Positions 34,960-55,754 of a DNA stretch of 64,000 bases are shown one piece after another (the stretch's first letter is position 1; the number at the start of each line of letters is the position of its first letter). Under the pieces are notes generated by a model. It was not told the origin of the DNA. It searched no databases and was given only the letters and a program-made list of their open reading frames with translations. The stretch lies in the IMG/VR virus record IMGVR_UViG_3300037455_000372, positions 11,710 to 75,709 of that record, one strand, 5' to 3'. Both the position numbers and the translations under genes were made by a program. The DNA comes from a virus. Its lineage: Duplodnaviria; Heunggongvirae; Uroviricota; Caudoviricetes.

Positions 34960-34961
34960 AA

Positions 34962-35663
34962 TTACTGCCTATAATCCTTCACATCTACAAAGTCGCGAAC
35001 CTTCACCTTGCAGATAACACGGTCTCCATTATTCGTAAACAGCTCGACGCGAGGACGCAATACCAATCCTTCCATTCGGTGGGTCGGGTCGAGCCAAGAA
35101 TAAGGACGGCTCTGGACAAACTCGATAGCGTCCAAGAACGGCATCAGCTCCTCGTGCGGACACATCATACCGAACTTTTTGGACACGTTATGGACCGGAT
35201 CACGGTTCCAGAACTTGCCGTCACAACAGATATCGTACATAATGAACTCGCCGTCCGGATATCCGTAATGATGGTTGTAGTCCTTGGAAACGCCTTCGCC
35301 GAAGATAAACGCCGGCTGTTCGCCGAACACTTCTTCGAGAACGGACTCAAATTGCGGAGTTCCGAACCGCTCGTTCAAGTAAGCCAGATAGCGTGGACAG
35401 AATGTCGACTTGTCGGTATGCCCGACGAAGCTGACACGGTCGCCATCCCACTTAATGCCGACGTTGGTGCCGTCAATCTTCTCGGACGCATACATCAATA
35501 CATTCTCTTCATAGAAGATTGGCATCCACGGCTTTGCGTAAATCGTTTTATCTACCAGACGGTCGTCGGGACACTTACGACCGAACGGTGCCGAAATTTT
35601 TCCATAATAATGTGCCATAATTAAAAACTCTGCGTAACTACGTTGAAGTTGATCTCGAACCAA
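34962..35663 (-). CDS. ATP-dependent RNA ligase, Rnl2-like (nucleotidyltransferase superfamily)
   Basis: adenylylation motif I KIDGTNVGI; size ~230 aa; alternative start ATG 35618 just after upstream stop. Confidence 0.55.
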   Translation of the reverse strand: MVRDQLQRSYAEFLIMAHYYGKISAPFGRKCPDDRLVDKTIYAKPWMPIFYEENVLMYASEKIDGTNVGIKWDGDRVSFVGHTDKSTFCPRYLAYLNERFGTPQFESVLEEVFGEQPAFIFGEGVSKDYNHHYGYPDGEFIMYDICCDGKFWNRDPVHNVSKKFGMMCPHEELMPFLDAIEFVQSRPYSWLDPTHRMEGLVLRPRVELFTNNGDRVICKVKVRDFVDVKDYRQ

Positions 35664-36133
35664 GGCTTGTTCTGGTTATCCAATGCCAGCTTCACCTCGA
35701 TACAAGGACTGTTAATAAATATCGGAACCGACTTATCTTCAGGATCGTTGTTATCACTGAACTTGAGAACTGCGTGGTAGATTCCTTCGGTAGACATAAC
35801 CGATTTGAACGCCTTGCAGTAGTCGTCGTAAATCACAAATTCCGGCGTGTCGGAATCCATCTCGTAGCCAAGCTCGTACAACGCAATAAGAACCGAGCAG
35901 ACGTGCTCCACTTCCTGAGCCAGCTCGGCTCCGCGAACTGGAGACTTGTCTGAATCGTCATAGCCGCTGTTAACAAACCCAAGCCGTCCAGCAGAGAAGG
36001 CCACCGCGTCAAAATCGAACGCAACCAGCGACTCGTGGACGATGTCGTGCCATTCGCGCCAATCAATCTTGTAATTCAGCACGTCATCGCGAGTCAGCAC
36101 GCGAGACGCTTTTCGTCGTAAGTTTTTTGCCAT
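35621..36133 (-). CDS. hypothetical protein (start MAKNLRRK)
   Basis: promoter motif 36139-36149 immediately upstream of ATG 36133; listed ORF start lies beyond the promoter. Confidence 0.5.
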   Translation of the reverse strand: MAKNLRRKASRVLTRDDVLNYKIDWREWHDIVHESLVAFDFDAVAFSAGRLGFVNSGYDDSDKSPVRGAELAQEVEHVCSVLIALYELGYEMDSDTPEFVIYDDYCKAFKSVMSTEGIYHAVLKFSDNNDPEDKSVPIFINSPCIEVKLALDNQNKPWFEINFNVVTQSF

Positions 36134-36168
36134 ATGGCAAATATAGCAATCTGAAACCAAAAATGCAA

Positions 36169-36372
36169 TTAGTTTTCGAACACCGTCTTATGGCCGTCTT
36201 GAAACCGCATAGCGGTGCAGTGGGCGTCAATGGTCTTCTTGGTATAGTCATACCGCATCCACACCTCGACATACTCGCCAAGGTGGAGACCGGGCGAGAC
36301 ACGCGCAACATAGTGTACCGGATTGCCGCGCTCGTCAAGCTCCGGCTTCATCTGCAAATCAATAGTTTCCAT
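36169..36372 (-). CDS. hypothetical protein (67 aa, start METIDLQ)
   Basis: promoter motif 36378-36388 directly upstream. Confidence 0.45.
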   Translation of the reverse strand: METIDLQMKPELDERGNPVHYVARVSPGLHLGEYVEVWMRYDYTKKTIDAHCTAMRFQDGHKTVFEN

Positions 36373-36439
36373 ACCCAAAATATAGCAAAAGGCGGCCCCG
36401 ACCGCAAGTCGGAACCGCCCGGAATTAAGGTAAACGCGG

Positions 36440-36625
36440 TCAGTCGTCGTACCAGTAAGTCGAATCCTTGAGGAACTTGTTGATACGCTGTTCGCGCTGG
36501 ATGGCCTTCTTGTCGACCCCGACGACCTTTGCGAACGACTTTGCAGCCTTCAGCTGCTTTGCCCAACGGGCTTCCTTTTGCTCCGGCGTTTCATCCGACT
36601 GAAATATGTGTTTCTTATTCTTCAT
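36440..36625 (-). CDS. hypothetical basic protein (61 aa)
   Basis: minus ORF. Confidence 0.4.
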   Translation of the reverse strand: MKNKKHIFQSDETPEQKEARWAKQLKAAKSFAKVVGVDKKAIQREQRINKFLKDSTYWYDD

Positions 36626-36648
36626 ATTTTACTTGCCTCTAAAAACTA

Positions 36649-36721
36649 AGCTGGTGATAGGACTCGAACCCACAACGTCTTGTGTACAAAACAAGCATTC
36701 TACCAATTGAATTACACCAGC
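36649..36721 (-). tRNA. tRNA-Thr (anticodon TGT)
   Basis: acceptor GCTGGTG/CACCAGC, anticodon arm CTTGT-TTTGTAC-ACAAG, T-arm GTGGG-TTCGAGT-CCTAT. Confidence 0.7.
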
Positions 36722-36900
36722 GGATCCGGTTTTACCTTACGGCTTTGAAATTCCCCAAGACCGGAAACTTGTCGCACAGCTACGACTGGGTCACCCCAGC
36801 TCCTTTCGGATTGCGCCGCTCTTTGTTGGGGCGTACAGTTTGCACGCCGCTCACGGATTTTAACCCGGTGTCGCTTCTACCAATGCGGGGTCATACGATG
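36722..36900 (-). ncRNA. structured non-coding segment abutting the 5' side of tRNA-Thr
   Basis: multiple perfect hairpins (TCCGGT..ACCGGA; GGCGT-ACAGTTTGC-ACGCC; CGGGTTAAAATCCG) and no credible ORF (the 80-aa + ORF 36682..36924 overlaps the tRNA). Confidence 0.3.
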
Positions 36901-36937
36901 CGTCCTAGAAACGCCACCTCTTAAACCTCAAATCCCA

Positions 36938-37228
36938 TCATCCTTCCTTCTGCGGACCCGCCAGATGGTGCCGCTCGTGTTCTGCCCGTTCGACATACAT
37001 CCCCAAGTCCTTCAACTTCTGGACAAGCCCAGTGAAACTGACTTCTATCTTCGTACCGTCTGGCCGCTCGATTTCCGCCGTCTCCGCCTTGAAATTATAT
37101 CTAATCCAAGTCGTGGCGAACGTGAACGGGTCTACATATTTCGATGTCTCCAGATCAAAGGCGTGGAACCCTTGGAGGAAACCTTCAACGTAGCGAAATT
37201 TCCAGATGGCAAACGACGATATTTCCAT
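36938..37228 (-). CDS. hypothetical protein (96 aa)
   Basis: minus ORF. Confidence 0.45.
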   Translation of the reverse strand: MEISSFAIWKFRYVEGFLQGFHAFDLETSKYVDPFTFATTWIRYNFKAETAEIERPDGTKIEVSFTGLVQKLKDLGMYVERAEHERHHLAGPQKEG

Positions 37229-37245
37229 AGCTAATAGCCAGTTTA

Positions 37246-37848
37246 TCAGTTCCCCTCGATAGAACCGGTCGAATTAGCCACCATAGCGAGCGCGGCGTTG
37301 TACAGTAGGACATCCGACTGGTATTCCGCTTCCGGAATCGGTTCCAAGACCTTGGTCATCCACGGTTGTTCATTATCCGGTCGCACGTCGTACACAAGGG
37401 AACGGAAGAACGATTCCAGTCCGTTGTTCTGGAATGAACTGGTTGTCTCTATCCAGCGGTCACTAACGTCGCCTTCGCCATCTTGACTGATTTCCACACT
37501 CGCCGTCCACGTCATCTTGATGGACTTCACTTCGGGAAGGCCGACCATCTTATAGATGATGTTCAGCCACTTTATAATGCGTTTCTGCTCGCTATGAGAC
37601 GGAATCGCTACTCTTGGGTCTTCGCCGTCAGCCGTCATACCAAGGCAGAGCACGATGAAATCGATGAATTTCTCCGGACACGGAGAAAAGTCGATATATC
37701 CGTTCTCGTCACGAGGAACATCAAGATGGATTACGCCATCCGCGTCAGGAACGGGGAACTCCTCGATGGGACGAAGCTTGTTGCCGAGAGTCAAGACGTG
37801 GCTGCTGCTAGAATTGGTCTCGAAAGTTCCGTTACGATAAGTTTCCAT
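37246..37848 (-). CDS. paralog family 2 protein (N-term METYRNGTFETNSSSSH)
   Basis: shares N-terminal METxRxGxFETNSSS signature with 37852..38292 and 40472..41071. Confidence 0.55.
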   Translation of the reverse strand: METYRNGTFETNSSSSHVLTLGNKLRPIEEFPVPDADGVIHLDVPRDENGYIDFSPCPEKFIDFIVLCLGMTADGEDPRVAIPSHSEQKRIIKWLNIIYKMVGLPEVKSIKMTWTASVEISQDGEGDVSDRWIETTSSFQNNGLESFFRSLVYDVRPDNEQPWMTKVLEPIPEAEYQSDVLLYNAALAMVANSTGSIEGN

Positions 37849-37851
37849 ACA

Positions 37852-38292
37852 CTAACACTCCTTTTCGAATGCGATACCGACCGTATCGCCGTACTGGACG
37901 AAGGAACCGCCGACGAGATCTTCGGTCGGCATCGAGTTCTCGTAGAACGCTTCGTCCAATGCGTCCCACTCGGCTTGTTCGACACTAGGATATGCCTCGG
38001 CCAGTTCGGAAATATTCTTACCCTCGGCAAGCTGTGGAATGATAGCCGCCAAGTGCGCTCTCGTCAAAGCAGACGCGTGCTGTTTAAAGCTCGACCAGAC
38101 TTCTTCCACAGCTTCCTCGCCACAGAGCACTGCACCTAGGCCAGCATCGTACTCGGATCCGTGACGAGTCCACTTGACGACGAAGTATTTAGGCCAGCCT
38201 TTTCCGTCGCCATACAACTTGGCCGCCATCAGCACGAACGCGTGACAGCTGCTGGAATTGGTCTCGAATGTTCCCACCCTCATTGTTTCCAT
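37852..38292 (-). CDS. paralog family 2 protein (N-term METMRVGTFETNSSSCH)
   Basis: same signature. Confidence 0.55.
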   Translation of the reverse strand: METMRVGTFETNSSSCHAFVLMAAKLYGDGKGWPKYFVVKWTRHGSEYDAGLGAVLCGEEAVEEVWSSFKQHASALTRAHLAAIIPQLAEGKNISELAEAYPSVEQAEWDALDEAFYENSMPTEDLVGGSFVQYGDTVGIAFEKEC

Positions 38293-38306
38293 ACGTTACC
38301 CCATCG

Positions 38307-38984
38307 TTAACCCATATCGGCACCCTTATAAGACGGTATCACATAACCGTCGTTAGGATTGACAAAAAGCTTCTTTTCCCCATTAAGCGTCTTCTTCACA
38401 AGGTCAACCGCATCGGCCTTATTGATCACGCAAGGATTCTTCTTGTGAGTAGCCCAAGAATAGCAACGGTCACGCGTCTGGTCATCGTTAATGAACACAT
38501 AGCGATGGCCGAAATCGTCTACGTGTACCGTCGACTTGAATGACTGCACCCATTCACGGTTGTGTTCAACCGTAAACGGATTGTCACACAATACGTAGAC
38601 GTTCCACAAGATGTCACCTTCATTCATCTGGTTCTCGTCCAGTCGGTTCAAGTCAGTCTGGAAGATGATTTTCCCAGCCGGAGGAGTAGATGCGGACTTG
38701 GCACGGCCTTTCTTCACGTCGAAATCCGCAGGGACGATGTCCAAGAAGATGTTCAAGTTCACGCAGCCATATCGTGCGATAAGCGTAGATTGGTTCTGGT
38801 TAACCTTGTCAGCTTGCAAAAGCATCTGTCGTAAGTCTTCGGCGGAGTATTCCTTGCCGCCGACGGAAACCTTTGAACCGAAGTCCAACGTGGCCACATA
38901 GGCTACGTAACGATTATACTCGTGGTCGGCCACGATAGTATAAGTACGGTTAGGAACTGGATAAGAAGTGTTAATCGCGTACAT
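38307..38984 (-). CDS. hypothetical protein (225 aa)
   Basis: minus ORF. Confidence 0.5.
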   Translation of the reverse strand: MYAINTSYPVPNRTYTIVADHEYNRYVAYVATLDFGSKVSVGGKEYSAEDLRQMLLQADKVNQNQSTLIARYGCVNLNIFLDIVPADFDVKKGRAKSASTPPAGKIIFQTDLNRLDENQMNEGDILWNVYVLCDNPFTVEHNREWVQSFKSTVHVDDFGHRYVFINDDQTRDRCYSWATHKKNPCVINKADAVDLVKKTLNGEKKLFVNPNDGYVIPSYKGADMG

Positions 38985-40204
38985 TATTTCCCCTTGGCTT
39001 TCTCTTCGGAAGCCTTGAAATTGTAAATCGGCTTGATGGTCGTTATGATATCAGCCGTCTCTTGGATGTTACGGACGATCTCGCCCATCGGCTTGTAGGC
39101 CATCGGCGACTCGTCGATAGTGCCAGAACCAACACATGTCGTGTAGATACCTTCCATCGAAGACTTGAACGCCTCCATCGTCAAGGTCTCCTTCGCCTTG
39201 GAACGAGACATCAAACGTCCGGCACCGTGCGGTCCGGAGAAGTTCCACTCTTCGTTGCCCTTACCGCGAACCAAGAGCGAGCCGTCCCTCATATTCATCG
39301 GAATCAAGGCGACCTCGTCCTTCTGCAAGGAAATGGATCCCTTGCGCAGAATCATATTGTCCAAGTCGATGTAGTTATGCACGGTACAGAACTTGTCCAA
39401 GATGTGATGCTTCTTGATGCCCATACAGTCGATGATGACATCCATCATCGCCTCACGGTTCCACCAAGCGAAATCCTGAGCAATCTTCATATCGTGCAAG
39501 TAGTTCTGCAGCAATTCGCCTTCCAAGTAGGCCAGCTCGTCCGGAATCGGACACTTTGCCGCTTGGTTCGCCTTCAAGACCGTCTCAATCTCGGACTGGC
39601 GGCCCTGAGCCTTCAACCGCTCGATAACCTCTTGCTTCGTCTGACGCTGGTTCTTGTGGTACTTGATTGCTTCCTTCTGGTAGAAATTACACACCTCAAT
39701 ACCCAAGTGGCGCGAGCCGGAATGAATTACGATGTATTTATTACCATCGGAATCCACATCAATTTCGCCGAAATGATTTCCCGAACCAAGAGTCCCAATC
39801 GATAACATCAGTTTTTCGGCATTGACTGGAGCAATCAATTCGTCCAAAGCAACACGTTCAGTAAAGCGGTGCTTCTTCGTACGGTGGTTCATCCCAGACG
39901 GAATTTCGTTATGCCACACCTTGTCGAACTTCGGCAAGTCGAGGATGCAGTCCTTCGAGACCTTCATCACGAGCATACCACACCCGATGTCGACGCCGAC
40001 CAAGTTCGGCACGACACGGTCGACAATCTTCATCGTCAACCCAATAACACAGCCAGTACCGGCGTGGCAGTCCGGCATAATGGCGAAATGAGAACCTTCA
40101 GCAAACTTCTGGTTCATCAAGTTCAAAATCTGCTTGTAGGCGGCATCTTCCAAGATGTCAGTATACACCTTCGCCGTGTTAAACTTTCCTACGATTTCAA
40201 TCAT
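38984..40204 (-). CDS. rtcB: RtcB-family RNA ligase (3'-phosphate/5'-OH)
   Basis: MPDCHAGTGCVIG, GSGNHF, NFSGPHGAGR motifs in RtcB order; start set to MIEIVGKF (AGAGG RBS) because promoter motif 40229-40239 lies inside the longer ORF. Confidence 0.8.
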   Translation of the reverse strand: MIEIVGKFNTAKVYTDILEDAAYKQILNLMNQKFAEGSHFAIMPDCHAGTGCVIGLTMKIVDRVVPNLVGVDIGCGMLVMKVSKDCILDLPKFDKVWHNEIPSGMNHRTKKHRFTERVALDELIAPVNAEKLMLSIGTLGSGNHFGEIDVDSDGNKYIVIHSGSRHLGIEVCNFYQKEAIKYHKNQRQTKQEVIERLKAQGRQSEIETVLKANQAAKCPIPDELAYLEGELLQNYLHDMKIAQDFAWWNREAMMDVIIDCMGIKKHHILDKFCTVHNYIDLDNMILRKGSISLQKDEVALIPMNMRDGSLLVRGKGNEEWNFSGPHGAGRLMSRSKAKETLTMEAFKSSMEGIYTTCVGSGTIDESPMAYKPMGEIVRNIQETADIITTIKPIYNFKASEEKAKGK

Positions 40205-40208
40205 AATT

Positions 40209-40478
40209 CTAACCTCTGTAATTGGGGTAAATATAGCAACACGGAGGATAAATGTCAATACGCCAATCGCCTAATTGGTATGGCAAGTCCTTGGTCATTC
40301 GCATATACTCTTTCATCGGGTCTACCGGGTCAGTAAACATATTCTTGTCCATCGCCGGGACTGCTATCAAGACCAGAAGCATCGAAGTCCACAACGCTGT
40401 GCGCCTAATAGTACACTTCAACGCAACCAGAAAGGTTACCGTAAACCAAATAAGTGCCAATACCGCTTGATCTAGCAT
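40209..40478 (-). CDS. small membrane protein (89 aa, two TM segments)
   Basis: hydrophobic helices; minus ORF between operon members. Confidence 0.4.
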   Translation of the reverse strand: MLDQAVLALIWFTVTFLVALKCTIRRTALWTSMLLVLIAVPAMDKNMFTDPVDPMKEYMRMTKDLPYQLGDWRIDIYPPCCYIYPNYRG

Positions 40479-42509: not shown

Positions 42510-42521
42510 ATAAACCCTAAT

Positions 42522-42593
42522 ACACCCGGCGAGAGTCGAACTCGCGACCTTGCCTTTCGGAGAGACACACTCTTCCAACTGAGCTACGAGTGC
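42522..42593 (-). tRNA. tRNA-Arg (anticodon CCG)
   Basis: acceptor GCACTCG/CGGGTGT (two GU), anticodon arm TGTCT-CTCCGAA-AGGCA, T-arm GCGAG-TTCGACT-CTCGC. Confidence 0.6.
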
Positions 42594-42599
42594 TTGAAA

Positions 42600-43010: not shown

Positions 43011-43040
43011 ATAAGACCTCTTTGTACAAAATATAGCAAT

Positions 43041-43065
43041 GCCACGGTCGTCGTGCAACCGTGGC
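43041..43065. repeat. perfect hairpin GCCACGG-N11-CCGTGGC immediately adjacent to promoter motif
   Basis: read directly. Confidence 0.5.
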
Positions 43066-43071
43066 ATCCTA

Positions 43072-43163
43072 TGGACCGACTCAGACTCGAACTGAGAAGT
43101 ACATTTTACTGTACGTGTGCCGGGTTATGAGTCCGGTGCCTTAACCAATTTGGCGATCGGTCC
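43072..43163 (-). tRNA. type-II-like tRNA (long variable stem-loop GTACA-GTAAAA-TGTAC) with anticodon CAT
   Basis: acceptor GGACCGA/TCGGTCC perfect, T-arm CTCAG-TTCGAGT-CTGAG, anticodon hairpin CCGG(A)-CTCATAA-(C)CCGG; about 92 nt. Confidence 0.5.
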
Positions 43164-43471: not shown

Positions 43472-44050
43472 TTACTCGACGGTGAAGCCGAGCTTGCCAG
43501 CAAGTTCTACGTCCATCGGGACCGTAATCTTCGTGGTGTTGTTGAACGCTTGCAACTCTTCTTCCAGATCGCGCTTGAGGTTGGTCGCCTTCATAATCGG
43601 CGCGTCGAAGAAATCGACGGTAGGCATAACCTGTGCCAACACTTCGACTTCGTACTTGCCGGTCACGTTGTTGAAGAATCGGTCGGTGTTCTTCGCGCCG
43701 CGAGCGTAGGTCTGCATATCAGAAAGCAAGGAAATAGTCTTATTGCACTTGTCAATCTGGGCGAGCTTAATCTGGCCTTCCGCGTTGCTCTGCTCGATGG
43801 CGATGTCGAGCGTCATCTTGGTATGGAGCAACTTCTCGACCTCGATAATGTCGTTTTCGACGGAATCGGTCGTAAGGTTCGTGAGTTCGGCGGGAAGCTC
43901 GGTCTCGTGTACAAACGGACGAATGCGGCGCAAGGTCTGTCCCATACGCTGAATCATATTGTTAAGGTCCTTGCGAGCCTTAAAAGCACGGGTCAACGAC
44001 ATCTGGACAGCGACCGGATGCACAAGTTCTTTTTGTTCAATAGTTTCCAT
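43472..44050 (-). CDS. hypothetical protein (192 aa)
   Basis: variant motif AATTATAGCAA at 44071-44081 upstream. Confidence 0.5.
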   Translation of the reverse strand: METIEQKELVHPVAVQMSLTRAFKARKDLNNMIQRMGQTLRRIRPFVHETELPAELTNLTTDSVENDIIEVEKLLHTKMTLDIAIEQSNAEGQIKLAQIDKCNKTISLLSDMQTYARGAKNTDRFFNNVTGKYEVEVLAQVMPTVDFFDAPIMKATNLKRDLEEELQAFNNTTKITVPMDVELAGKLGFTVE

Positions 44051-44138
44051 AAATTCCTCTCAGATGACGAAATTATAGCAATCCGGACTACGGATGTCAA
44101 CGGTTGAACGAATAATTGGCCTTTTTTATATTGGTGGT

Positions 44139-44336: not shown

Positions 44337-44349
44337 GCTGGCCTCTTAG

Positions 44350-44422
44350 TAGCGGGAGACGGACTCGAACCGACGACGCCGAGCATATGAAACTCGTGAG
44401 CTACCAACTGCTCTATCCCGCG
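44350..44422 (-). tRNA. tRNA-Met (anticodon CAT; initiator-like C1 mismatch and GGTCGTCGGTTCG block)
   Basis: acceptor CGCGGGA/TCCCGCT with C1-U72 mismatch, anticodon arm CGAGT-TTCATAT-GCTCG. Confidence 0.6.
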
Positions 44423-44469
44423 ATGTACTGTAAGTTTATATATAGCTAAAATTTTTTAAATTGTCAAGC

Positions 44470-45653: not shown

Positions 45654-45655
45654 CC

Positions 45656-47689
45656 CTATTCCAGAGAAGCTACCCAGTCGTTGTAGCTCGCGTCACTGGG
45701 CATACGCCAGTCGGCACGAGGAGACAGCGACAACGTACCGACCTTCGGTCCGTCAGGGATGCAACTGCGCTTGAACTGCTGGGTGAAGAAACGGCGCAAG
45801 AAGAGTTCAAGAGCCTTCTTCAGCTCGTCGTGCTTGTCCCTGCCGAACGCATATTCGGCCAGATACAGCATCTTCGACGGCGTGGCACCGTACTTCACGA
45901 AGTGGTACAAGTAGAAGTCGTGAATATCGTAGGATCCGAGGATGCTCTCCGTCTTCTGCGCAATATTGCCGTTTGCGTCAGCCGGAAGCAGCTCAGGAGA
46001 TACCGGCGTGTCCAAGATGTCTCTGAGAACATCGGCCAGATTCTTCTTGCTGTCATCGCCTTCGCCAATCATACGGTCGACAATGCTGTACTTGTATTCG
46101 TTGTCGGCCTTGTCGGCATACCAGTTCACGATATAACGAACAAGCGTCTTCGGAATGTCGCAGTTCACCGAGTACATCGACATATGGTCGGCGTTATAGG
46201 TACACCAGCCAAGAGCGATTTCGGACAAGTCTCCGGTTCCGATAACCATACCTTGTTCCTTGTTGGCCAAGTCCATAAGAATCTGGGTACGTTCACGAGC
46301 TTGCGTATTCTCGTATGTCACGTCGGTAACCTTCGGATCGTGTCCGATATCGTCGAAGTGCTGCATACAAGCCTTGGAAATGTTAATCGTACGGAGTTCC
46401 ACACCAAGAGCCTCAGCCATTTCTACGGCATTATTCTTGGTACGCTTGGTTGTACCAAACCCAGGCATTGTCACCGCAAGGATGTCGGAAACCGGTCTGC
46501 CCAAGAGCTTGTACGTCTCGTATACGACCAGCAAGGCCAACGTAGAGTCAAGACCGCCAGACAACCCGATTACGGAACGCTTCACTCCGGTTTCAAGACG
46601 CTTGGCAAGGCCAGCACACTGGATATTGAAGATTTCACGGCAACAGTCATTGCGAACATTGGCAGCACTCGGCACAAACGGAGTCGAAGAAACATAGCGG
46701 TATTTCAGCTCCTTATTTGTCGGAACTGGGTCAATATCGCGGAATTTAATGGGGTGATAAACACGAAAACGGTTAACAACATCGCTATGTCCGAAATCTT
46801 GGAACGAACCTTCGCTGATACGCTGCATATTCAAGCGAGCCGCGTCAATATCTGCATAGATAATCTCGGTATCGCGAGAGAACTTATTGCACTCGGCCAT
46901 AAGGCTGCCGTTCTCGGCAATCATCAGGTGGCCGCTGCAAACCATATCAGTTGTCGATTCGTGAACACCAGCGGAGGCGTACACGTAACCAGCCATACAA
47001 CGGGCGGACTGATTCGTCACAAGGTCGCGACGATAGTTGGCCTTGCCTACCAATGCGTCACTGGCAGACAAGTTCAGAATCACGTTCGCACCGGCAAGAG
47101 CAAGTTCACCACTCGGCGGAGCCGGAGTCCACAAGTCTTCACACAATTCTACGCCGAGGCGTAATTCTGTATTGTTGGCAAACCCAAGCAAGTTGGTAAT
47201 TACCGGTTCATAGGCACCGACCCGGCACGTAAGAGCGTGACCGAACTCGTCACCCTTGAGCAATTCATAGCCGCTAGAAAAATGACGTTTTTCGTAAAAT
47301 TCGCGCTGGTTAGGCAAGTGAATCTTAGGCGTTACCGCGACAACCGATCCATTTTGGATAAGCACGGCGCAGTTGTACAAACGACCGAAAATCCGAAGCG
47401 GCGCACCCACAGCAATGATGACGTTTTTAAACGTATCACTGTTCATTTGGGTCATCCGGCAAATGTCAGTAATACCGTCGATTGTCTTCTGAAGAAGCGT
47501 CTCTTGATGGAAGAGGTCGTTACAAGTATAACCGGTGATACTCAGTTCCGGGAATACGACAACCGTTGCGCCGTTCTTTACGGCTTCCTTGGTCGCTTTC
47601 TTGATTTCAGCCACGTTGTATTCAGTATCTGCCACCTTGAGCTTGGGGCATACTGCAGCAAATCTGTAAAATCCGAATCCGTTATTCAT
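45656..47689 (-). CDS. nadE: glutamine-dependent NAD+ synthetase (CN-hydrolase + NadE domains)
   Basis: N-domain nitrilase-type FPELSITGY / K / LCEDLW triad; C-domain PP-loop GLSGGLDSTL; 677 aa typical for the two-domain enzyme. Confidence 0.8.
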   Translation of the reverse strand: MNNGFGFYRFAAVCPKLKVADTEYNVAEIKKATKEAVKNGATVVVFPELSITGYTCNDLFHQETLLQKTIDGITDICRMTQMNSDTFKNVIIAVGAPLRIFGRLYNCAVLIQNGSVVAVTPKIHLPNQREFYEKRHFSSGYELLKGDEFGHALTCRVGAYEPVITNLLGFANNTELRLGVELCEDLWTPAPPSGELALAGANVILNLSASDALVGKANYRRDLVTNQSARCMAGYVYASAGVHESTTDMVCSGHLMIAENGSLMAECNKFSRDTEIIYADIDAARLNMQRISEGSFQDFGHSDVVNRFRVYHPIKFRDIDPVPTNKELKYRYVSSTPFVPSAANVRNDCCREIFNIQCAGLAKRLETGVKRSVIGLSGGLDSTLALLVVYETYKLLGRPVSDILAVTMPGFGTTKRTKNNAVEMAEALGVELRTINISKACMQHFDDIGHDPKVTDVTYENTQARERTQILMDLANKEQGMVIGTGDLSEIALGWCTYNADHMSMYSVNCDIPKTLVRYIVNWYADKADNEYKYSIVDRMIGEGDDSKKNLADVLRDILDTPVSPELLPADANGNIAQKTESILGSYDIHDFYLYHFVKYGATPSKMLYLAEYAFGRDKHDELKKALELFLRRFFTQQFKRSCIPDGPKVGTLSLSPRADWRMPSDASYNDWVASLE

Positions 47690-48372
47690 TTCTTCTTAGC
47701 CTTCTTTTTAGGTTTAATGTCTTCGTTAGGGGTCCAGTTCTTCGGTAGGTCGTCCCAGAGCTTGCGGTTCTTCTTGCACCAGCTAAGGAACTCGTGAGTG
47801 TCGGGGAAAAGGTCAACGATGCCGATCGGCAACTGGTCTTTTACACAATCGTTCACGCTATAATGTATCAGCGGCTTATTGAGGTCGATGCGGTCGAGCA
47901 ACTTGCGGAATTGGTCTACAATTTGGCCAGCAAACTCGATTCCTCGCACGATTTCGCTGGTCTTAACCATACGACGGTCGTTACGATTGATGGAATCCTC
48001 GTACATTTTCTTCCAGTCCCACGTCGTACGGATATAGAGCAGCAAGTCGTACGGCGATATGACTTCCTTGCGCTTGACGATATCGCACATCAACGGTCCA
48101 GTCATTTCGAGAGCGTGCCGCATCTTGTGGATTTGTTCGTTGGTCTGTGCCGAAAACTTGGACACAATATCGGGCAGAAGTCCAGAGATGAACAACGTGT
48201 TTTCCGGAGAAATGTCGCACATCTCGTTGAGGAGGTGTTCGACAATCATCTTGCGACGGTCTTTACTCTGGATAATCGTATTCATCGCTTTGATTTCATC
48301 TGCGGTGAGCTTGTTCAGGTCGAAACAGTCGCGCAGATTCGTTCCAAGTCGACCACATACTGTATCGATCAT
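47686..48372 (-). CDS. hypothetical protein with Lys-rich C-terminal tail (KPKKKAKKK)
   Basis: ORF 47686..48444 trimmed to MIDTVCGRL, which abuts the upstream stop. Confidence 0.5.
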   Translation of the reverse strand: MIDTVCGRLGTNLRDCFDLNKLTADEIKAMNTIIQSKDRRKMIVEHLLNEMCDISPENTLFISGLLPDIVSKFSAQTNEQIHKMRHALEMTGPLMCDIVKRKEVISPYDLLLYIRTTWDWKKMYEDSINRNDRRMVKTSEIVRGIEFAGQIVDQFRKLLDRIDLNKPLIHYSVNDCVKDQLPIGIVDLFPDTHEFLSWCKKNRKLWDDLPKNWTPNEDIKPKKKAKKK

Positions 48373-48950
48373 TTCTTCTCCTTTTTCTTCTTTGCCTTTT
48401 TCTCGGCAGCTTTCGCCGTCTTCTGAGCCTTCCTGATGACCCAAGTGAACTTGTTGATAACCTCAAGTTCAATCTTGTTGATTGTAAGCTCGATTTTATC
48501 TTCGGGGATGACGGTGGCACTCGACAAGTGCTTGACCTTGTGACGCTTGAGTTCTTCTCCGGTACCGAAATCCACGTTCAACGCCGAGTAGTCTGGGTTT
48601 TTCCAAACCGAGATCAGACGGTCGAGAACCAGTTCGAATTCGTCGCCGCCAAGCCAGCGTTCAGCACCGACTACGTGAGCGATACGGTATTCGACGGACT
48701 TCGGCGAACGGTTCTGTTCATCTTCCTCGTACCAAGAGTGTCCCGGAATCTTAATCCAGTGGCCGACAACCGGCTCCAGCAAGTCTCGAATCTTGTTGCT
48801 GTCCTTGATTTCGTCAATCGAATGCAGCTCTTGTTCGAGACGTTGAATCTCGGCGAAATGTTCGTCGCGCATCTGCTGGAGCTTCTCTTGCGGGAGGTCG
48901 AGAAGCGACTTCTGGTAAGGGTCTGTAACTTTAACTTTCTTTATAGGCAT
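48369..48950 (-). CDS. hypothetical protein with Lys-rich C-terminal tail (KKAKKKKEKK)
   Basis: start MPIKKVK after GAGGAAA; variant motif GAATATAGCAA 48970-48980 upstream. Confidence 0.5.
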   Translation of the reverse strand: MPIKKVKVTDPYQKSLLDLPQEKLQQMRDEHFAEIQRLEQELHSIDEIKDSNKIRDLLEPVVGHWIKIPGHSWYEEDEQNRSPKSVEYRIAHVVGAERWLGGDEFELVLDRLISVWKNPDYSALNVDFGTGEELKRHKVKHLSSATVIPEDKIELTINKIELEVINKFTWVIRKAQKTAKAAEKKAKKKKEKK

Positions 48951-49024
48951 AGGCCATTTCCTCTGACTTGAATATAGCAATTTGCACCGATCTTGTCAAC
49001 ACTAAAATATCGAAATAAAACAAA

Positions 49025-49062
49025 AAAGCGGCCTCCGAAGAGACCGCTTCTTCAGCCTTATC
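49025..49062 (-). terminator. rho-independent terminator (minus strand): GCGGTCTC-TTCG-GAGGCCGC followed by TTTTTTGTTTTATTT
   Basis: GC-rich hairpin plus U-run read on the minus strand. Confidence 0.6.
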
Positions 49063-49514
49063 CATAGTTGCTGCCTATGGGCGCGACTTGTATTGATGAG
49101 ACCACGTCGCGTACTTTTTGTTTGGTTAAATGGTGGGCGGCACACGATACCTTTTTGCATTGATTTCTTAAAAGGAAATTGCATAAGTTGTGTTGCTGCG
49201 TGTATCGTTACCCCACGGAGGTTCGAAGCTCCGTAAGACCGCCGAAATCCGTGGGACACGGTGCGTTTGTGCTTCCAATGCGCGGAATTGATTAGTTGCT
49301 GTATGCACCGTTAAGTCCCGGTGCGATAGAACCCAAGATACTTTATTGTTACGCCGCTCTAACCAACTGAGCTATGCCGCATCGTCAGCGATAAACGCTT
49401 CCAATTTATAGCGGCAGCAGGACTCGAACCTACGACACACGCCTTGATATGGATGGTTTTGTTGCTGCTGGCATCTTTACCGATTCTATCGCAAATCCTT
49501 AGAGTAAATCTTAG

Positions 49515-49587
49515 TAGCTCGTTGCGGATTCGAACCGCAGTGCCAGCCTTGAGAGGGCTGTGACCTAGGCCGCTAGTCTAACGAGCC
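49515..49587 (-). tRNA. tRNA-Glu (anticodon CTC)
   Basis: acceptor GGCTCGT/ACGAGCT, Glu-like D-arm GACT-AGCGGCCTA-GGTC, anticodon arm CAGCC-CTCTCAA-GGCTG, T-arm TGCGG-TTCGAAT-CCGCA. Confidence 0.6.
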
Positions 49588-49725
49588 AAAAAGACAAGGT
49601 GCTATTCGCTTTACTTATCTGAGCCTAGTTCAGAGGTATAGGTTGTGTTGCTGTAAGCACCTTTAAACTCTTTTTGTCAAACATCAGATTCAGTCTCGCT
49701 GAATCATTACGAACCAAATATAGAT

Positions 49726-50274
49726 TTAGATTTTGAGGTTGTCAAGGGGTTTTGGTGAATTTTTATCGTTTTTCTTTCCGCCCAGCTTACCGTTTATATA
49801 ATTGGTCGCAATCGCGAAAACTGCGCCAGACGCCATTCCGATAAAATGGTTCATATGGCCGATCCCATCCGCCTTTCCGGTCGCCATAAGCTCCTGACCG
49901 CCATACGTCACCACGACAAACAATCCGCATAAAGAGAACATATGCTTGGAATCGGCCATCAAGTTCAGCATAAACAGTGCGAACACGAACGCCGACATAC
50001 CGATGCCGTACTGGTTCACCAGTCCCTGATACAGCGAATCCACCCAGCAAGTGAACAAGAAGGCCAGCAGATAGCTAACCTTGCCATAGCTGCGCTCCAC
50101 CATCGGACTCAAAACGGCAAACAGCATACTGTTGTTAAGCCAATGGTTAAAGTCGCCGTGCATAAAGGCCGACGTGACCATATTGTACGGAATGTCGCTC
50201 TTGCATAGCAGACCGACTAAGGACAGCACAATGAAAGTGACCGACAGTATCTCGTCCTTGAGCACATTAAGCAT
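49726..50274 (-). CDS. rhomboid-like intramembrane protein
   Basis: polytopic; HGDFNHWLNNSMLF (H..H..N block), GIGMSAF (GxSx), GHMNHFIGMASG (His region). Confidence 0.5.
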   Translation of the reverse strand: MLNVLKDEILSVTFIVLSLVGLLCKSDIPYNMVTSAFMHGDFNHWLNNSMLFAVLSPMVERSYGKVSYLLAFLFTCWVDSLYQGLVNQYGIGMSAFVFALFMLNLMADSKHMFSLCGLFVVVTYGGQELMATGKADGIGHMNHFIGMASGAVFAIATNYINGKLGGKKNDKNSPKPLDNLKI

Positions 50275-51136
50275 TTTTCATCTTCCTCTTGTATTCCTCG
50301 ACTTCCCTCAAGAACTGCTGACGGTTCCCACCGAAGTACGCCTTCTTCGCACCCTCGATCCGGTCGGACAGAGCATTCCAAGTAATCGTCTTCGACGATT
50401 CGTCGCACAAGTATGACTTTACCGCCGTAATCATCTTCGACACCGTCTTAGGGTCGTTCGGGTAGAGGCGTACGCCAAAGACTTGAGACTCGGAGATGCG
50501 CGGAAGACCGGTCTCTACCGGAAGGTACGAATAGAACTCGATCTTGGTCATCTTTACGGCAAACGTAAAGTTGTCAAACGGAACCACATTGAACTTCAGA
50601 TAGCTCGTATTGCCGTATGCACTTATACATTCAAACAACAACCCATCGAACTCGTCTCGGATTACAGTAACCAATGACCTAGAATCCATCTTCTTGATGG
50701 TTTCGCCGTCAAATGTAGCATAACGGCGATTTTTATCCATCGTTACTACGCTTTCGACCAAGTCCATATGGTTCTCGAACTCAAGCATACGCTTATGCAC
50801 GAGCTTGTCGAACTTTTCTGGGTCGGTAAAGATTTCGAACTTACCTTTGGCTTTCAGGTCGTTAATGCATTGGATAGTGTAGCCGACGGTTTCTTCGTGT
50901 TTAAACTGTGGATACGAGCATTGGCTTACGCGAAGAACATTTCCTTCAAACCATACAGTGTTGGAGTCAGTGGTCGTGCTTACTTCCGTAAACAAATCGT
51001 TCTCAAGCAAAAGACACTTGCCTTTCACCGCCTTAACCAATTCCTTCAAGCCCTGCTTCCCTTGCAACCGCTCAATCTGGGCATTGATTTCCTTAGCTTG
51101 TTCTTTCAGCTTGTCGAGTTCGGTGTTCTTGGCCAT
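50267..51136 (-). CDS. hypothetical protein (289 aa)
   Basis: minus ORF. Confidence 0.5.
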   Translation of the reverse strand: MAKNTELDKLKEQAKEINAQIERLQGKQGLKELVKAVKGKCLLLENDLFTEVSTTTDSNTVWFEGNVLRVSQCSYPQFKHEETVGYTIQCINDLKAKGKFEIFTDPEKFDKLVHKRMLEFENHMDLVESVVTMDKNRRYATFDGETIKKMDSRSLVTVIRDEFDGLLFECISAYGNTSYLKFNVVPFDNFTFAVKMTKIEFYSYLPVETGLPRISESQVFGVRLYPNDPKTVSKMITAVKSYLCDESSKTITWNALSDRIEGAKKAYFGGNRQQFLREVEEYKRKMKNA

Positions 51137-51138
51137 AA

Positions 51139-51576
51139 TTACCCCTTATAGAGCTGATACTTTTTGCTCAAAGTACGACTAGTCTCGTCGGGCAACGGCT
51201 TGAACCAGATTCCGACGCGGCAATACTTGTTGCCTTTCTCGTCTACGGCCTCCGGAGTCAGCTCCGTCAAGCAAGCGTCGTCGATAAAGTCATAGTCGGT
51301 TCCCTTGACCAGACCCATTTCCTTGGCGACATCCTCCACCTTCATCAAGTGGTTAAGATTCTTCGCCTCGCAGATGGTCTTGACGAACAGACCTTGGATA
51401 TACTCTTCCATCGTCTTTGTATCGAGTTCGAACGTCACTTGGTATACACCGTCGTCCTCCATCGAATTCGTGGAAATAAGGCGGGTCCAGTAACCCTCGG
51501 CACAGTGAGCCACCATCGCGGCAAGCTTACCGGCAGACAAATTCAAGTCCTTTCGGATGATAAATAAACGGCGCAT
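51139..51576 (-). CDS. PTH2-family peptidyl-tRNA hydrolase-like protein
   Basis: FIIRKDLNLSAGKLAAMVAHCAEG matches the PTH2 v.R.DL.m..GKiaAQ..HA opening block. Confidence 0.55.
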   Translation of the reverse strand: MRRLFIIRKDLNLSAGKLAAMVAHCAEGYWTRLISTNSMEDDGVYQVTFELDTKTMEEYIQGLFVKTICEAKNLNHLMKVEDVAKEMGLVKGTDYDFIDDACLTELTPEAVDEKGNKYCRVGIWFKPLPDETSRTLSKKYQLYKG

Positions 51577-52505
51577 TACTTCTCCGTCTTGTTATTAGTC
51601 TTCAACCATTCTTGGAAATACCAGAGCTGTCCACAACCGCCTCCGATGTCGTCCTGACCCGCCGGGTTGAACACACGGAGCGACACGCCACGGGAAAGCA
51701 AGGCATCCTTGAAGTTATTGATAACCTCAAGCTGACGGTCGATACTGGCGGCCACCGTCTCGTCCTTCGAGCAGATGACGCTCAAGGTCGTCTCCCATAC
51801 CTTCGGGTCGAACAGGTCTACCAAGCGTTCGGCATCCTCGACGGCGTTGTTGCCTTCGTGGACACAGTAGTTGTAAAACGGCTTTCTACCCACATAGGAC
51901 GCCCACATCTCGCCAAGAGAAGCGATCTGACGCAACGTGCTGGTCTTGGTCGGAATGAGCTTCGAACGGTTCTCGTCGGTGCTCTCGTGGACGGAGAACT
52001 GCAGTCCAACCTTGTCGATTTGCTTGGACAATTCGATGAACGACGGCATATTGTGGAGCGAGTCCCAAGTCGGTGCCGATGTCGACACCAGCAACGCGGC
52101 GTTCGGATATTTCTGGTTGAGACGCTTGATGGCACATTCCAGATTGATGTAGTTCATAAACGGCTCGCCCATCGACATAAACATAATCTGGAACTTCTTG
52201 ATTTCCTCGGTATGCGTGTCCTTGAGTACGGAGTCGGCGATCGCAGTCTCGACTTGCTGGACAATCTCGGACGCAGTCAAGTTGCGGACGAAGAACTTAC
52301 CCGTACCGCAGAAGGTACAGCCGACCGGGCAACCGCTCATAACGGAACAACAGATGACCGTGCGTTCCTTGTAGGATCCGTAACGGTACAGAACAGCCTC
52401 GGCGATAGCCGCCTTGCTATGGATGCCCGCATCTTCTTCCTTGGACCATTCGAAAACGTATTTCTTTACATTGGTGTCCGACGACTGGAAAACCTTGTAC
52501 TGCAT
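51576..52505 (-). CDS. RlmN/Cfr-family radical-SAM RNA methyltransferase (N-terminally short, 309 aa)
   Basis: CPVGCTFCGTGKFFVRNLTASEIVQQV (CX3CX2C plus RlmN FNRNL..EI..Q block), IMFMSMGEPFMN (GMGEP), C-terminal GGGCGQL (conserved methyl-carrier Cys). Confidence 0.75.
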   Translation of the reverse strand: MQYKVFQSSDTNVKKYVFEWSKEEDAGIHSKAAIAEAVLYRYGSYKERTVICCSVMSGCPVGCTFCGTGKFFVRNLTASEIVQQVETAIADSVLKDTHTEEIKKFQIMFMSMGEPFMNYINLECAIKRLNQKYPNAALLVSTSAPTWDSLHNMPSFIELSKQIDKVGLQFSVHESTDENRSKLIPTKTSTLRQIASLGEMWASYVGRKPFYNYCVHEGNNAVEDAERLVDLFDPKVWETTLSVICSKDETVAASIDRQLEVINNFKDALLSRGVSLRVFNPAGQDDIGGGCGQLWYFQEWLKTNNKTEK

Positions 52506-52557
52506 ATTTACCTCATTTTTGTAGAAATATAGGTATCTGCAGCACCGTTGTCAAGAC

Positions 52558-52971
52558 TTATCGGTACTTCTTCCGCTTAAAATCGAGCGTCCGTACGAAG
52601 TCCATTACCGTTTTCTGCTTCTCGTTCCATTGATCGAAACATTCTTCGACAGTCAGCGGACGAAACGACGGCCAACGCTTCCGCACCAAAGGTAAAGGTA
52701 TCGGCGTCGTTAAAAGCCGCTCTCGTTCCGCTCGTTGACGCTCGGCTTCCGCGTCCTCGTCCTCCCAACGCTTCACGATATCCGGATATAGCGTGGCTGG
52801 CTCGACTTCAGTCGTGTACGAAACCGGAACCGGCTCCTTCTCTGCCCGGCGAAGGTACGACTCCTCGGCTGAAGCCGAACCGTCGCTACGGAAATAGCCG
52901 ACCAGATAACGCTTAGTTCCGGTCGACAACGAATAATTCTTGTATAGCTTGACTACTTTATCGTATCGCAT
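52558..52971 (-). CDS. hypothetical protein (137 aa)
   Basis: minus ORF. Confidence 0.45.
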   Translation of the reverse strand: MRYDKVVKLYKNYSLSTGTKRYLVGYFRSDGSASAEESYLRRAEKEPVPVSYTTEVEPATLYPDIVKRWEDEDAEAERQRAERERLLTTPIPLPLVRKRWPSFRPLTVEECFDQWNEKQKTVMDFVRTLDFKRKKYR

Positions 52972-53009
52972 ATAGCCAAGTTAGCTATTTGATATTTGAA
53001 ATTCAATTA

Positions 53010-53086
53010 GAGCACTCGGACAGGCTCGAACTGTCGATCATGCGGTTGCGGCGCATTGCCTTTAAAAACCAACTTGGCTACGAGTG
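53010..53086 (-). tRNA. tRNA-Cys (anticodon GCA), extended D-loop
   Basis: acceptor GCACTCG/CGAGTGC, anticodon arm ATGCG-CCGCAAC-CGCAT, T-arm GACAG-TTCGAGC-CTGTC. Confidence 0.55.
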
Positions 53087-53091
53087 CTTAA

Positions 53092-53164
53092 ATATGGCGA
53101 CCCAGACTCGAACTGGGGTAAACGCTTTTAGGAGAAGCGCACATATCCAACTATGCTATCGCCA
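53092..53164 (-). tRNA. tRNA-Arg (anticodon CCT)
   Basis: acceptor GTGGCGA/TCGCCAT, anticodon arm CGCTT-CTCCTAA-AAGCG, T-arm CCCAG-TTCGAGT-CTGGG. Confidence 0.6.
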
Positions 53165-53168
53165 CATA

Positions 53169-53255
53169 ATACCGACGCCCAGACTCGAACTGGGATGGGA
53201 CTTGATGTCCCGGACGATTAGAAGTCGTCTGCACTATCCAATTATGCGACGCCGG
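53169..53255 (-). tRNA. type-II-like tRNA (18-nt variable stem-loop GGGAC-ATCAA-GTCCC) with anticodon TCT
   Basis: acceptor GCCGGCG/CGTCGGT, D-arm GCAT-AATTGGATA-GTGC, anticodon arm GACGA-CTTCTAA-TCGTC perfect, T-arm CCCAG-TTCGAGT-CTGGG. Confidence 0.5.
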
Positions 53256-53262
53256 CAAAAGA

Positions 53263-53598
53263 CTAACGCCTTACCGGTCTACACACGAACATACATCGGT
53301 CGCTTCCCCATAAAGTCTTGGGAGCATTACCGTCAAAACCACGGATGTCAATCGTGACAATACCGTCGGAATACTGGAAACCGTTGCCGTCGGCAATGCC
53401 TTCCACCTTTTCCGTGCCGGATTCAAATACAGAATAACCGAACGAGTTGCCTTCCCCGGCAACGTCGGAACCCTTCTGGCGAAGATACAGCTTCGCCTTT
53501 TCCATATCGCACCCGGTAGCCTCCAGTGCTTCCTTGCACAGAGCTACGCTGACTTGCGTCTGGTCACGGAGTTCCTTAATCTGTTCCAATGTTGCCAT
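53263..53598 (-). CDS. EF-Ts N-terminal (EF-Tu-binding, UBA-like) domain protein
   Basis: MATLEQIKELRDQTQVSVALCKEALEATGCDMEKAKLYLRQKG parallels EF-Ts N-term ...VKELRERTGAGMMDCKKAL.E..GD.E.A...LR.KG; only ~110 aa, no EF-Ts core; AAGGAA RBS before ATG 53598. Confidence 0.55.
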   Translation of the reverse strand: MATLEQIKELRDQTQVSVALCKEALEATGCDMEKAKLYLRQKGSDVAGEGNSFGYSVFESGTEKVEGIADGNGFQYSDGIVTIDIRGFDGNAPKTLWGSDRCMFVCRPVRR

Positions 53599-54172: not shown

Positions 54173-54175
54173 GAA

Positions 54176-54246: not shown

Positions 54247-54260
54247 GAATAAATATATTA

Positions 54261-55748: not shown

Positions 55749-55754
55749 TTATAG

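Follow-up and report, generated by a model that had tools for sequence, protein, structure and literature searches.

When genes with a common theme lie close together in a phage genome, do they form one inherited module, or did they gather there independently? The question is raised by a stretch of IMG/VR virus record IMGVR_UViG_3300037455_000372 (Caudoviricetes; positions 11,710 to 75,709; 64,000 nucleotides, hereafter the window, whose own numbering is used throughout), in which a region at 34962-53598 encodes an RtcB RNA ligase, an Rnl2-like ligase, a PTH2-type peptidyl-tRNA hydrolase, a radical-SAM methylase of the RlmN/Cfr type and a protein resembling the N-terminal domain of elongation factor EF-Ts, beside a large array of tRNA genes. 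An original prediction, made from the sequence alone, had taken this set for a coordinated module of tRNA repair and translation manipulation. Our analysis favors a more qualified description: with a probability of roughly 55%, the region is a translation-support island of a large phage, formed by accretion of independently acquired genes with the same theme and not co-inherited as an operon. The predicted coordination is valid solely as a shared promoter class and a shared theme.

The five family assignments behind the prediction all hold on the minus strand, on which nearly all genes of the region lie (G+C content of the window, ~49%), in hidden Markov model searches and in motif and structure checks. 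For RtcB (38984-40204, −; 406 residues), PF01139 (202.2 bits against a gathering cutoff of 27), phrog_1075 (E=5e-129) and the catalytic motifs agree: MPDCHAG (PDCH), GSGNHF, IHSGSRHLG and PHGAGR align to solved RtcB structures, with the metal-binding Asp, Cys and His residues and the guanylylated histidine (HGAGR) kept. The nearest cultured relatives are from Bacillus phages, at ~55% identity. The protein thus shares PF01139, the metal ligands and the GMP-bearing histidine of HGAGR with cellular RtcB, such as that of the Escherichia coli RtcBA operon and the archaeal and metazoan tRNA splicing ligase, but it belongs to a phage clade (phrog_1075) and has no RtcA, archease or RtcR nearby. PHROGs and Pfam scans of more than 25 open reading frames (ORFs) without family in and around the region, among them the 225-residue ORF coupled to RtcB, gave nothing usable; hence no archease, RtcA or PrfH-like partner was found.

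The PTH2-type hydrolase (51139-51576, −; 145 residues) exceeds the Pfam gathering cutoff (PF01981, 40.3 bits against 23) and does not reach the equivalog level of NCBIfam (39 bits where 126 are required, and 30.5 where 82 are). Both family motifs are kept, RKDLNLSAGKLAAMVAH (GK..AH) and DDACLTEL (DA.LTE), which align to the archaeal Pth2 structures 1rzw and 1rlk and are separated by an insertion of ~30 residues. Directly upstream lies the methylase (51576-52505, −; 309 residues), which matches RlmN and Cfr models with E=6e-29 (TIGR00048, RlmN) to 1e-16, all under their cutoffs (TIGR00048, 101 bits against 290). It aligns over ~250 residues to the RlmN/Cfr structures 6fz6, 9p0p and 3rf9, with VICCSVMSGCPVGCTFCGTG and GGGCGQL conserved and MGEP aligned, and retains CxxxCxxC and both mechanistic cysteines, for methyl transfer and crosslink resolution, including that of the ICCS motif. 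The alignment begins at query residue 36-45, as against 88-115 in the solved enzymes, so that ~50 N-terminal residues, most of the accessory domain, are missing; the RlmN/Cfr assignment is sound for the family and its catalytic residues, in a protein without that domain and below equivalog level. The methylase stop overlaps the PTH2 start (TAATG), which argues for translational coupling of the two.

EF-Ts contacts EF-Tu through an N-terminal UBA-like domain, and the TDF motif of its core drives nucleotide exchange. The window protein (53263-53598, −; 111 residues) corresponds to the first of these parts: its TIGR00116 match (E=2e-9) is limited to residues 19-61 of the 128-codon ORF, or 2-44 of the 111-residue protein, and Pfam EF-Ts_N scores 21.9, under its cutoff of 33.2. 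An AlphaFold model (mean predicted local distance difference test score, pLDDT, 73) has three helices followed by a six-strand beta domain, and the best Foldseek matches are EF-Ts N-terminal UBA-like domains (2cp9, 1xb2 and 4pc3), in agreement with TIGR00116. The beta part, which makes up the C-terminal half, has no specific match, Pfam finds no EF-Ts core (PF00889), and one conserved Phe falls near the TDF motif position in a MAFFT alignment only. A ~100-residue EF-Ts fragment is also encoded by Caulobacter phage Colossus, whose truncated gp247 was proposed as an EF-Tu modulator (Gill et al. 2012, PMC3556154); gp247 was reported to have core subdomain N and Phe81, whereas the stub described here combines a UBA-like N-terminal domain with a non-EF-Ts beta domain.

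Around these proteins, ARAGORN and Rfam each find 39 tRNA genes in the window, 41 in union, which cover all 20 amino acids; two are seen by Rfam only, tRNA-Cys(GCA) at 53011-53087 and a 94-nt tRNA at 55913-56006, and both are counted in the full amino-acid coverage. The prediction of about 40 tRNAs within 20 kb was therefore right in number but not in location: 8 of the 41 lie inside 34962-53598 and 33 form the main array at 54091-60042 (−), so that the whole gene set covers ~25 kb. Within the region, tRNA-Thr(UGU) (36649-36721, −), tRNA-Arg(CCG) (42521-42593, −), a 92-nt tRNA-Met(CAU) (43072-43163, −), a second tRNA-Met (44349-44422, −) and tRNA-Glu(CUC) (49514-49587, −) are scattered, and tRNA-Arg(UCU), tRNA-Arg(CCU) and tRNA-Cys(GCA) (53011-53257, −) stand immediately downstream of the EF-Ts-like gene. 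The main array is interrupted by two homing-endonuclease-type genes, one encoding a DUF559 protein with a zinc finger (54261-55505, −) and one matching phrog_655 (57412-58329, −). Separately, the latter has a 98% identical copy in the related contig L049, at the matching array position, and a 45% identical homolog elsewhere in another relative, L052.

How these genes may be expressed is indicated by perfect TTGACA-N17-TATAWT sites, of which the window contains 11 (0.01 expected by chance), at 731-759, 14344-14372, 21162-21190, 21504-21532, 29624-29652, 40230-40258, 44072-44100, 48971-48999, 49717-49745, 52526-52554 and 54252-54280. Nine are on the minus strand and intergenic, and most of the 11 have a TGn extended -10 element (TTGCTATATT); together they look like a phage early promoter class, read by host sigma-70 polymerase. 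Those in the region precede RtcB, ORF 43472-44050, ORF 48369-48980, tRNA-Glu, the methylase and a unit headed by tRNA-Gln and tRNA-Leu. RtcB and the methylase have their putative promoters at 40258-40230 and 52554-52526, in both cases with a GAGG ribosome-binding site and then an ATG behind the promoter, and the RtcB stop overlaps the start of the next ORF (TAATG). The remainder of the predicted RtcB unit (36390-38984, −) comprises four ORFs without family match, tRNA-Thr(UGU), a 61-residue ORF and a strong terminator at 36420-36390. Downstream of the site at 54280-54252 (−), a mixed unit contains tRNA-Gln, tRNA-Leu, two small ORFs, the EF-Ts-like gene, two tRNA-Arg genes, tRNA-Cys and an ORF of 137 residues, its extent being judged from spacing and from the next promoter at 52554; the EF-Ts stub thus appears to be co-transcribed with tRNAs. 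Given this layout of promoters and terminators, the region consists of at least six promoter-delimited units of one class, not of one operon.

Comparison with other contigs bears on how these units came together. Megablast of the region against 50,697 GenBank phage records gave no match, and identical copies of window proteins occur only on metagenome contigs. A 135-kb IMG/VR relative, IMGVR_UViG_3300028797_002668, has common proteins 74-97% identical to those of the window, except for one endonuclease at 51%; remoter relatives are contigs of 126 and 150 kb, one 182-kb contig is recorded for the same protein, and related contigs range from 126 to 185 kb. The order of the tRNA array is kept in all four related phages (L052, L049 and L005 among them), and in all four the EF-Ts stub lies within the array, at 83-96% identity and more conserved than its neighbors. 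L052 is further syntenic for PTH2, a rhomboid-family gene, NadE, a peptidase and a DNA methylase; L049 has no PTH2 beside the stub.

Several lines of evidence support the reading as a translation-support island. Each protein has family, motif and fold support, and 41 tRNAs cover all amino acids. Perfect promoters lie just ahead of RtcB, of the methylase-PTH2 pair and of the unit of tRNAs and EF-Ts stub; through TAATG overlaps the methylase is coupled to PTH2, and RtcB to the ORF downstream; and the tRNA array with its embedded stub is kept in four related phages. Similar associations recur beyond this group. The separate lineage L048 has an EF-Ts gene directly upstream of RtcB, and among 24 other phage contigs (up to 434 kb) with PTH2 relatives (39-65% identity), 12 loci have tRNA genes within 10 kb; other genes of the window set are nearby in none of the 24. 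Published work also ties the same gene types to tRNA-targeting defenses (PMC7824862, PMC10264068, PMC11464382, PMC11555353). At the L048 locus (10001-12006 of IMGVR_UViG_3300043432_000484, an unrelated 133-kb phage contig), EF-Ts is a complete short protein of 199 residues (PF00889, E=1e-27) that begins with MATLEQIKE, as does the window stub, and lies immediately upstream of RtcB.

Against a single coordinated module, and to a degree against any functional grouping, stand a number of observations beyond the division into at least six units. The same stretch holds NadE, a C5 DNA methylase, an M15 peptidase, a rhomboid and ~17 genes without family out of roughly 30, and promoters of this type serve unrelated genes in other parts of the window as well. 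For each of RtcB, PTH2, the RlmN-like gene and the ligase, many other phages have a copy with none of the others close by, and synteny of the components holds only for the closest relative. The sister phages L052 and L049 lack the RlmN-like gene in the corresponding stretch and carry in its place a fast-evolving ORF of 301-306 residues, weakly resembling a 289-residue ORF of the window; in one large contig group the RlmN-like gene stands among PolA, ThyX, metallophosphoesterases and an NAD-salvage set, and most of its loci checked have no tRNA nearby. Relatives of the Rnl2-like ligase lie in two different phage replication modules, in one bacterial-looking contig and in one phage region rich in ORFs without family, and no partner kinase or phosphatase for it was found in the window among the P-loop, DxDxT, 2H and metallophosphoesterase candidates checked. 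A conserved methylase-PTH2 pair was also considered and rejected, the two genes adjoining only in the closest relative among 42 methylase loci and 25 PTH2 loci.

These distributions raise the alternative that the region is simply an accessory-gene hotspot, a variable zone beside the tRNA array where horizontally gained genes with their own promoters accumulate without joint function, the theme being partly an annotation bias. Independent distribution of every component is what such a zone would produce, as are an RlmN-like gene that is present or absent among sister phages, homing endonucleases within the array, the large share of genes without family, the interspersed NadE, DNA methylase, peptidase and rhomboid genes, and RtcB relatives (67-77% identity) that have no other neighbor in common with the window. 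Yet a hotspot without joint function fits less well with all five recognizable RNA and translation proteins lying within 18.6 kb by the array (outside the region, the largest window ORFs were scanned), with an EF-Ts stub that is embedded in the array and more conserved than its surroundings, with EF-Ts beside RtcB in the unrelated phage L048, and with the translational coupling of methylase and PTH2. On balance, we regard a purely functionless hotspot as somewhat unlikely. The comparative data do indicate that the translation-support island was assembled piecemeal. What stands of the predicted module is a shared theme, strand and promoter class and a stub inside the tRNA array; what falls, given the number of units, the interspersed unrelated genes, the independent distributions seen in the synteny comparison and the lack of a healing partner for the ligase, is its unity.

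What might such an island do? From family membership and established enzymology we infer a scheme in which host RNA polymerase would transcribe the units, probably early, so that translation could continue despite cleavage or depletion of the host tRNAs. Phage tRNAs would substitute for lost host tRNAs. RtcB joins 3′-phosphate or 2′,3′-cyclic phosphate ends to 5′-OH ends, and here it would directly rejoin tRNA halves with 2′,3′-cyclic-phosphate and 5′-OH ends, the products of anticodon nucleases. PTH2 would recover tRNA from the peptidyl-tRNA that stalled ribosomes drop, the short methylase would methylate an adenine, either at position 37 of tRNA or at A2503 of 23S rRNA, and the EF-Ts stub would bind the G domain of EF-Tu.

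Several of the tRNAs are themselves unusual. The 94-nt tRNA at 55913-56006 (−; Rfam tRNA, 44.7 bits) is assigned to Lys(UUU) because of its anticodon loop, CUUUUAA; its D-loop carries an 18-nt hairpin insertion and two T-stem pairs are mismatched, and ARAGORN misses it at default settings. The L052 ortholog measures 79 nt. tRNA-Lys(UUU) is the classical target of PrrC and PARIS. An 89-nt tRNA-Arg(UCU) (53169-53257, −) has a long variable arm with a 5-bp stem, resembling class II tRNAs, and keeps A20 and C35, while a 90-nt tRNA-Asn(GUU) (58445-58534, −) and the 92-nt tRNA-Met(CAU) have long variable regions. Some relatives (L005 and L052) keep the long Arg and Asn forms; the Arg tRNA is 77 nt in L049 and the Met tRNA 75 nt in L052. 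ARAGORN in intron mode found no introns in the long tRNAs, their additional length being in D-loops or variable regions; their candidacy as intron-bearing substrates for splicing by RtcB was provisionally set aside on this ground, the bulge-helix-bulge motif not having been searched.

The same inventory could serve a general takeover of translation, compensating for codon usage and for late decay of host tRNAs and ribosome function, with no anticodon nuclease involved. A near-complete set of 41 tRNA genes for 20 amino acids is not restricted to known nuclease targets, PTH2 and an EF-Ts-like factor act in translation generally, NadE suggests metabolic support on a broad front, and codon compensation is the classical view of phage tRNAs, as discussed in PMC10264068. 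The chemistry of RtcB argues against this alternative, the enzyme being specifically suited to ends that anticodon nucleases and other metal-independent RNases leave (established enzymology; PMC7824862). Selection to escape recognition may likewise account for the atypical tRNA-Lys(UUU) and for the other insertion-bearing tRNAs. We hold a takeover that involves no nuclease to be unlikely, and retain an island that would support translation when host tRNAs are cut or depleted.

The ligase is the member whose role in this scheme is least secure. Its ORF spans 34962-35663 (−), with a probable ATG at 35618 that gives a protein of 218 residues (34962-35618), in agreement with the homolog P0017. PF09414 scores 51 bits against a cutoff of 27, and motifs I (EKIDG, KxDG), III (E109), IIIa (F126/D130), IV (EG.V) and V (K.K) are invariant in a 36-sequence alignment. 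Sequence searches against solved structures gave no match, and placement came from fold search only: with an AlphaFold model at pLDDT 93.6, Foldseek ranks T4 Rnl2 first (2hvr and 1s68; E=1.5e-8, template modeling score 0.65-0.69), then the Naegleria nick-sealing RNA ligase, with DNA ligases lower. The protein ends after motif V, as does the family, uniformly 214-222 residues long, so that it has a nucleotidyltransferase domain only, without C-terminal domain; T4 Rnl2 needs its C-terminal domain for the 5′-adenylylation step. The Rnl2 equivalog model TIGR02307 gives 18 bits against a cutoff of 197. As modeled, the ligase is Rnl2-like in fold and chemistry and not a full Rnl2, which upholds the predicted KxDG ligase in this narrower form.

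A role outside tRNA repair is accordingly a serious possibility for the ligase, at somewhat less than even odds: it could be a replication or repair enzyme that seals nicks in duplexes (DNA, or DNA primed with RNA), or it could belong to a conflict system with its neighbors. It is packed together with an AAA_21 ABC-type ATPase (33700-34959, −; weak PADLOC matches to NsnB, AriA and PtuA), from which 2 nt separate it, and with a DUF488 (DUF488-N3a) protein (33323-33703, −) that overlaps the ATPase gene by 4 nt, whereas the strong terminator at 36420-36390 divides it from RtcB, which already covers direct ligation. The three genes (33323-35618) may form a conflict system unrelated to tRNA repair; a literature search on DUF488 found nothing relevant to RNA repair. 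The uniform ~220-residue length of the family, without the Rnl2 C-terminal domain, points the same way. So do its other contexts: two other phage types have it amid PolA, DnaB-like, SNF2, PD-(D/E)XK and clamp-loader genes, one member lies in a bacterial-looking contig beside MetE and OmpA, and its neighbors in the four contexts seen include no kinase, phosphatase or tRNA array (L173 does contain two tRNA genes). The fold ranking argues for RNA instead, and jumbo phages often pair RtcB with Rnl-type ligases, thought to be non-redundant (PMC7824862). In the bacterial-looking contig, L172 (756-1418; a bovine metagenome contig with 58% G+C), the family member stands beside a thioesterase, MetE, a radical-SAM protein and OmpA, and the family is thus not limited to phages.

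With mixed contexts and no healing partner, the ligase role is the weakest point of the island reading. The original prediction had placed a P-loop kinase-like gene at 23867-24841 (−), and a P-loop is indeed present (AAA_28, 31 bits), but nothing ties the protein to polynucleotide kinase: searches against PDB and NCBIfam gave no match, a 140-residue N-terminal extension is specific to this phage group, and the C-terminal half belongs to a very large anonymous AAA_28 family of ~180-residue stand-alone proteins that resemble nucleotide kinases, some with inteins. A scan of the window ORFs for the HAD motif DxDxT found none, and a 2H-like candidate, ORF 6350-7030, matched an HD-domain protein only, and weakly. 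A further candidate for end healing joins a nucleoside 2-deoxyribosyltransferase-like domain (PF15891) to a calcineurin-type metallophosphoesterase (25699-26847, −; phrog_547, E=2e-29). This fusion was set aside after matching aq_1665 only; it may process nucleotides or nucleotide signals. In 14 other phage loci, relatives of it (~30% identity) have the short RlmN-like gene no more than 10 kb away.

That short gene belongs to a wider group. Copies with 48-71% identity occur on ~40 other IMG/VR contigs, and the gene is also present in cultured phages of Stenotrophomonas, Xanthomonas, Vibrio, Aeromonas and Salmonella, Stenotrophomonas phage ANB28 and Salmonella phage Arash among them. A full library scan returned 67 clusters (50% identity) at E<=1e-30, mostly of 280-320 residues, canonical RlmN/Cfr appearing only from about E=1e-23. 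Judged by sequence, the short methylase is a distinct short family, mostly on phage contigs. RlmN and Cfr are synthases of C2 and C8 methyl groups at A2503 of 23S rRNA, and RlmN also methylates A37 of tRNA. With them the window protein shares the radical-SAM core, CxxxCxxC, both cysteines and the MGEP and CGQL motifs; it differs in lacking most of the N-terminal accessory domain, in scoring far below equivalog cutoffs and in belonging to a separate short family. Our literature search found no paper on a phage-encoded short RlmN/Cfr family. One cultured-phage record labels its copy RlmN, and two cultured-phage records with the gene label that position "prohibitin/SPFH", probably a mis-annotation. 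In L008 (3476-17144) and ~14 similar IMG/VR loci on contigs of 93-175 kb, the gene accompanies PolA, ThyX, two metallophosphoesterases and a Preiss-Handler NAD salvage set (a PncA-like isochorismatase, PncB and a NadD-like cytidylyltransferase), with NadE-like matches in several.

A bolder proposal, which we consider very doubtful, is that the short RlmN/Cfr-like proteins are phage-borne radical-SAM adenine C-methylases acting on a new target, combined here with an EF-Ts stub directed at EF-Tu. The new target may have followed loss of the N-terminal RNA-recognition domain, with phage tRNAs, A2503 or even DNA as candidates; methylation of A2503 may give Cfr-like protection against inhibitors or toxins of the peptidyl-transferase center; and the stub, in a putative transcript with tRNAs, may act on EF-Tu to counter defense or to further takeover.

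Sets that join tRNAs with RtcB or Rnl ligases and PTH2 are known from jumbo phages already. Iyer, Anantharaman, Krishnan, Burroughs and Aravind (2021, Viruses 13:63; PMC7824862) reported tRNA arrays, RtcB, Rnl1 or Rnl2, kinases, phosphoesterases and PTH2 in such phages, explained them by repair of cleaved tRNAs and rescue of jammed ribosomes, and noted backup NAD+ synthesis genes too. The island resembles these sets in its large tRNA array, its RtcB and Rnl-type ligases and its PTH2 of archaeal/eukaryotic type. It differs in that the related contigs, at 126-185 kb, are below the jumbo threshold; in that polynucleotide kinase, HAD phosphatase, 2H phosphoesterase, RlaP and CCA-adding enzyme were not found in the window; and in its short methylase and EF-Ts stub, RlmN, radical SAM and EF-Ts going without mention in that paper. 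With T4 Pnk and Rnl1, which counter the PrrC anticodon nuclease, it shares the theme of phage-encoded repair of tRNA breaks and an ATP-dependent KxDG ligase, but no Pnk-like healing enzyme was found in the window, the ligase has the fold of Rnl2 rather than Rnl1 and lacks a C-terminal domain, and the main candidate sealer is RtcB, which needs no end healing. The claim that the set is more extensive than the T4 Pnk/Rnl pair is correct as to size, although the comparable jumbo-phage sets were described before. Phage tRNAs that counter tRNA-targeting defenses have been documented experimentally (PMC10264068, PMC11464382, PMC11555353); the present repertoire is similarly large and includes tRNA-Lys(UUU), but several of its tRNAs show unusual insertions in place of the documented anticodon-loop substitutions.

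Among the interspersed genes, one points to the likely host. NadE (45656-47689, −) is a full-length glutamine-dependent NAD+ synthetase (NF002730, 817 bits) and not a translation gene. It is 63-68% identical to NadE of Fibrobacter, and the top 16 genome matches all come from rumen or horse-gut assemblies of Fibrobacter; a single Prevotella assembly likewise reaches 68%, and the next matches are at or below 58%. Because its NadE is closest to that of Fibrobacter, this genus is probably the host of the phage or the donor of the gene, as far as NadE alone can tell; an oral host, suggested by sample names, was dropped in view of the rumen and horse-gut matches. NadE further suggests NAD+ replenishment as a second support or counter-defense role. 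Other accessory genes in the window encode an M29 aminopeptidase (9673-10770, +), a NIF3/DUF34 protein (14488-15315, +), an SPFH/Band 7 protein (31596-32384, −) and the rhomboid-family protease (49726-50274, −).

Collectively, synteny and promoter mapping resolve this locus into a mosaic of independent units, whose coordination a thematic gene list alone overstates. Interest centers on the family of short methylases, on the array-embedded EF-Ts stub and on the atypical tRNAs; barely studied among them are the methylase family, which has members in cultured phages, and a protein in the array that retains only the N-terminal domain of EF-Ts. If the short methylase did methylate C8 of A2503, it would be relevant to antibiotic resistance; Cfr gives protection against the PhLOPSA classes. 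We know of no cultured phages of Fibrobacter. The phage strategy of bringing tRNAs, repairing them and rescuing ribosomes extends to 126-185-kb phages of herbivore-gut metagenomes that probably infect this genus.

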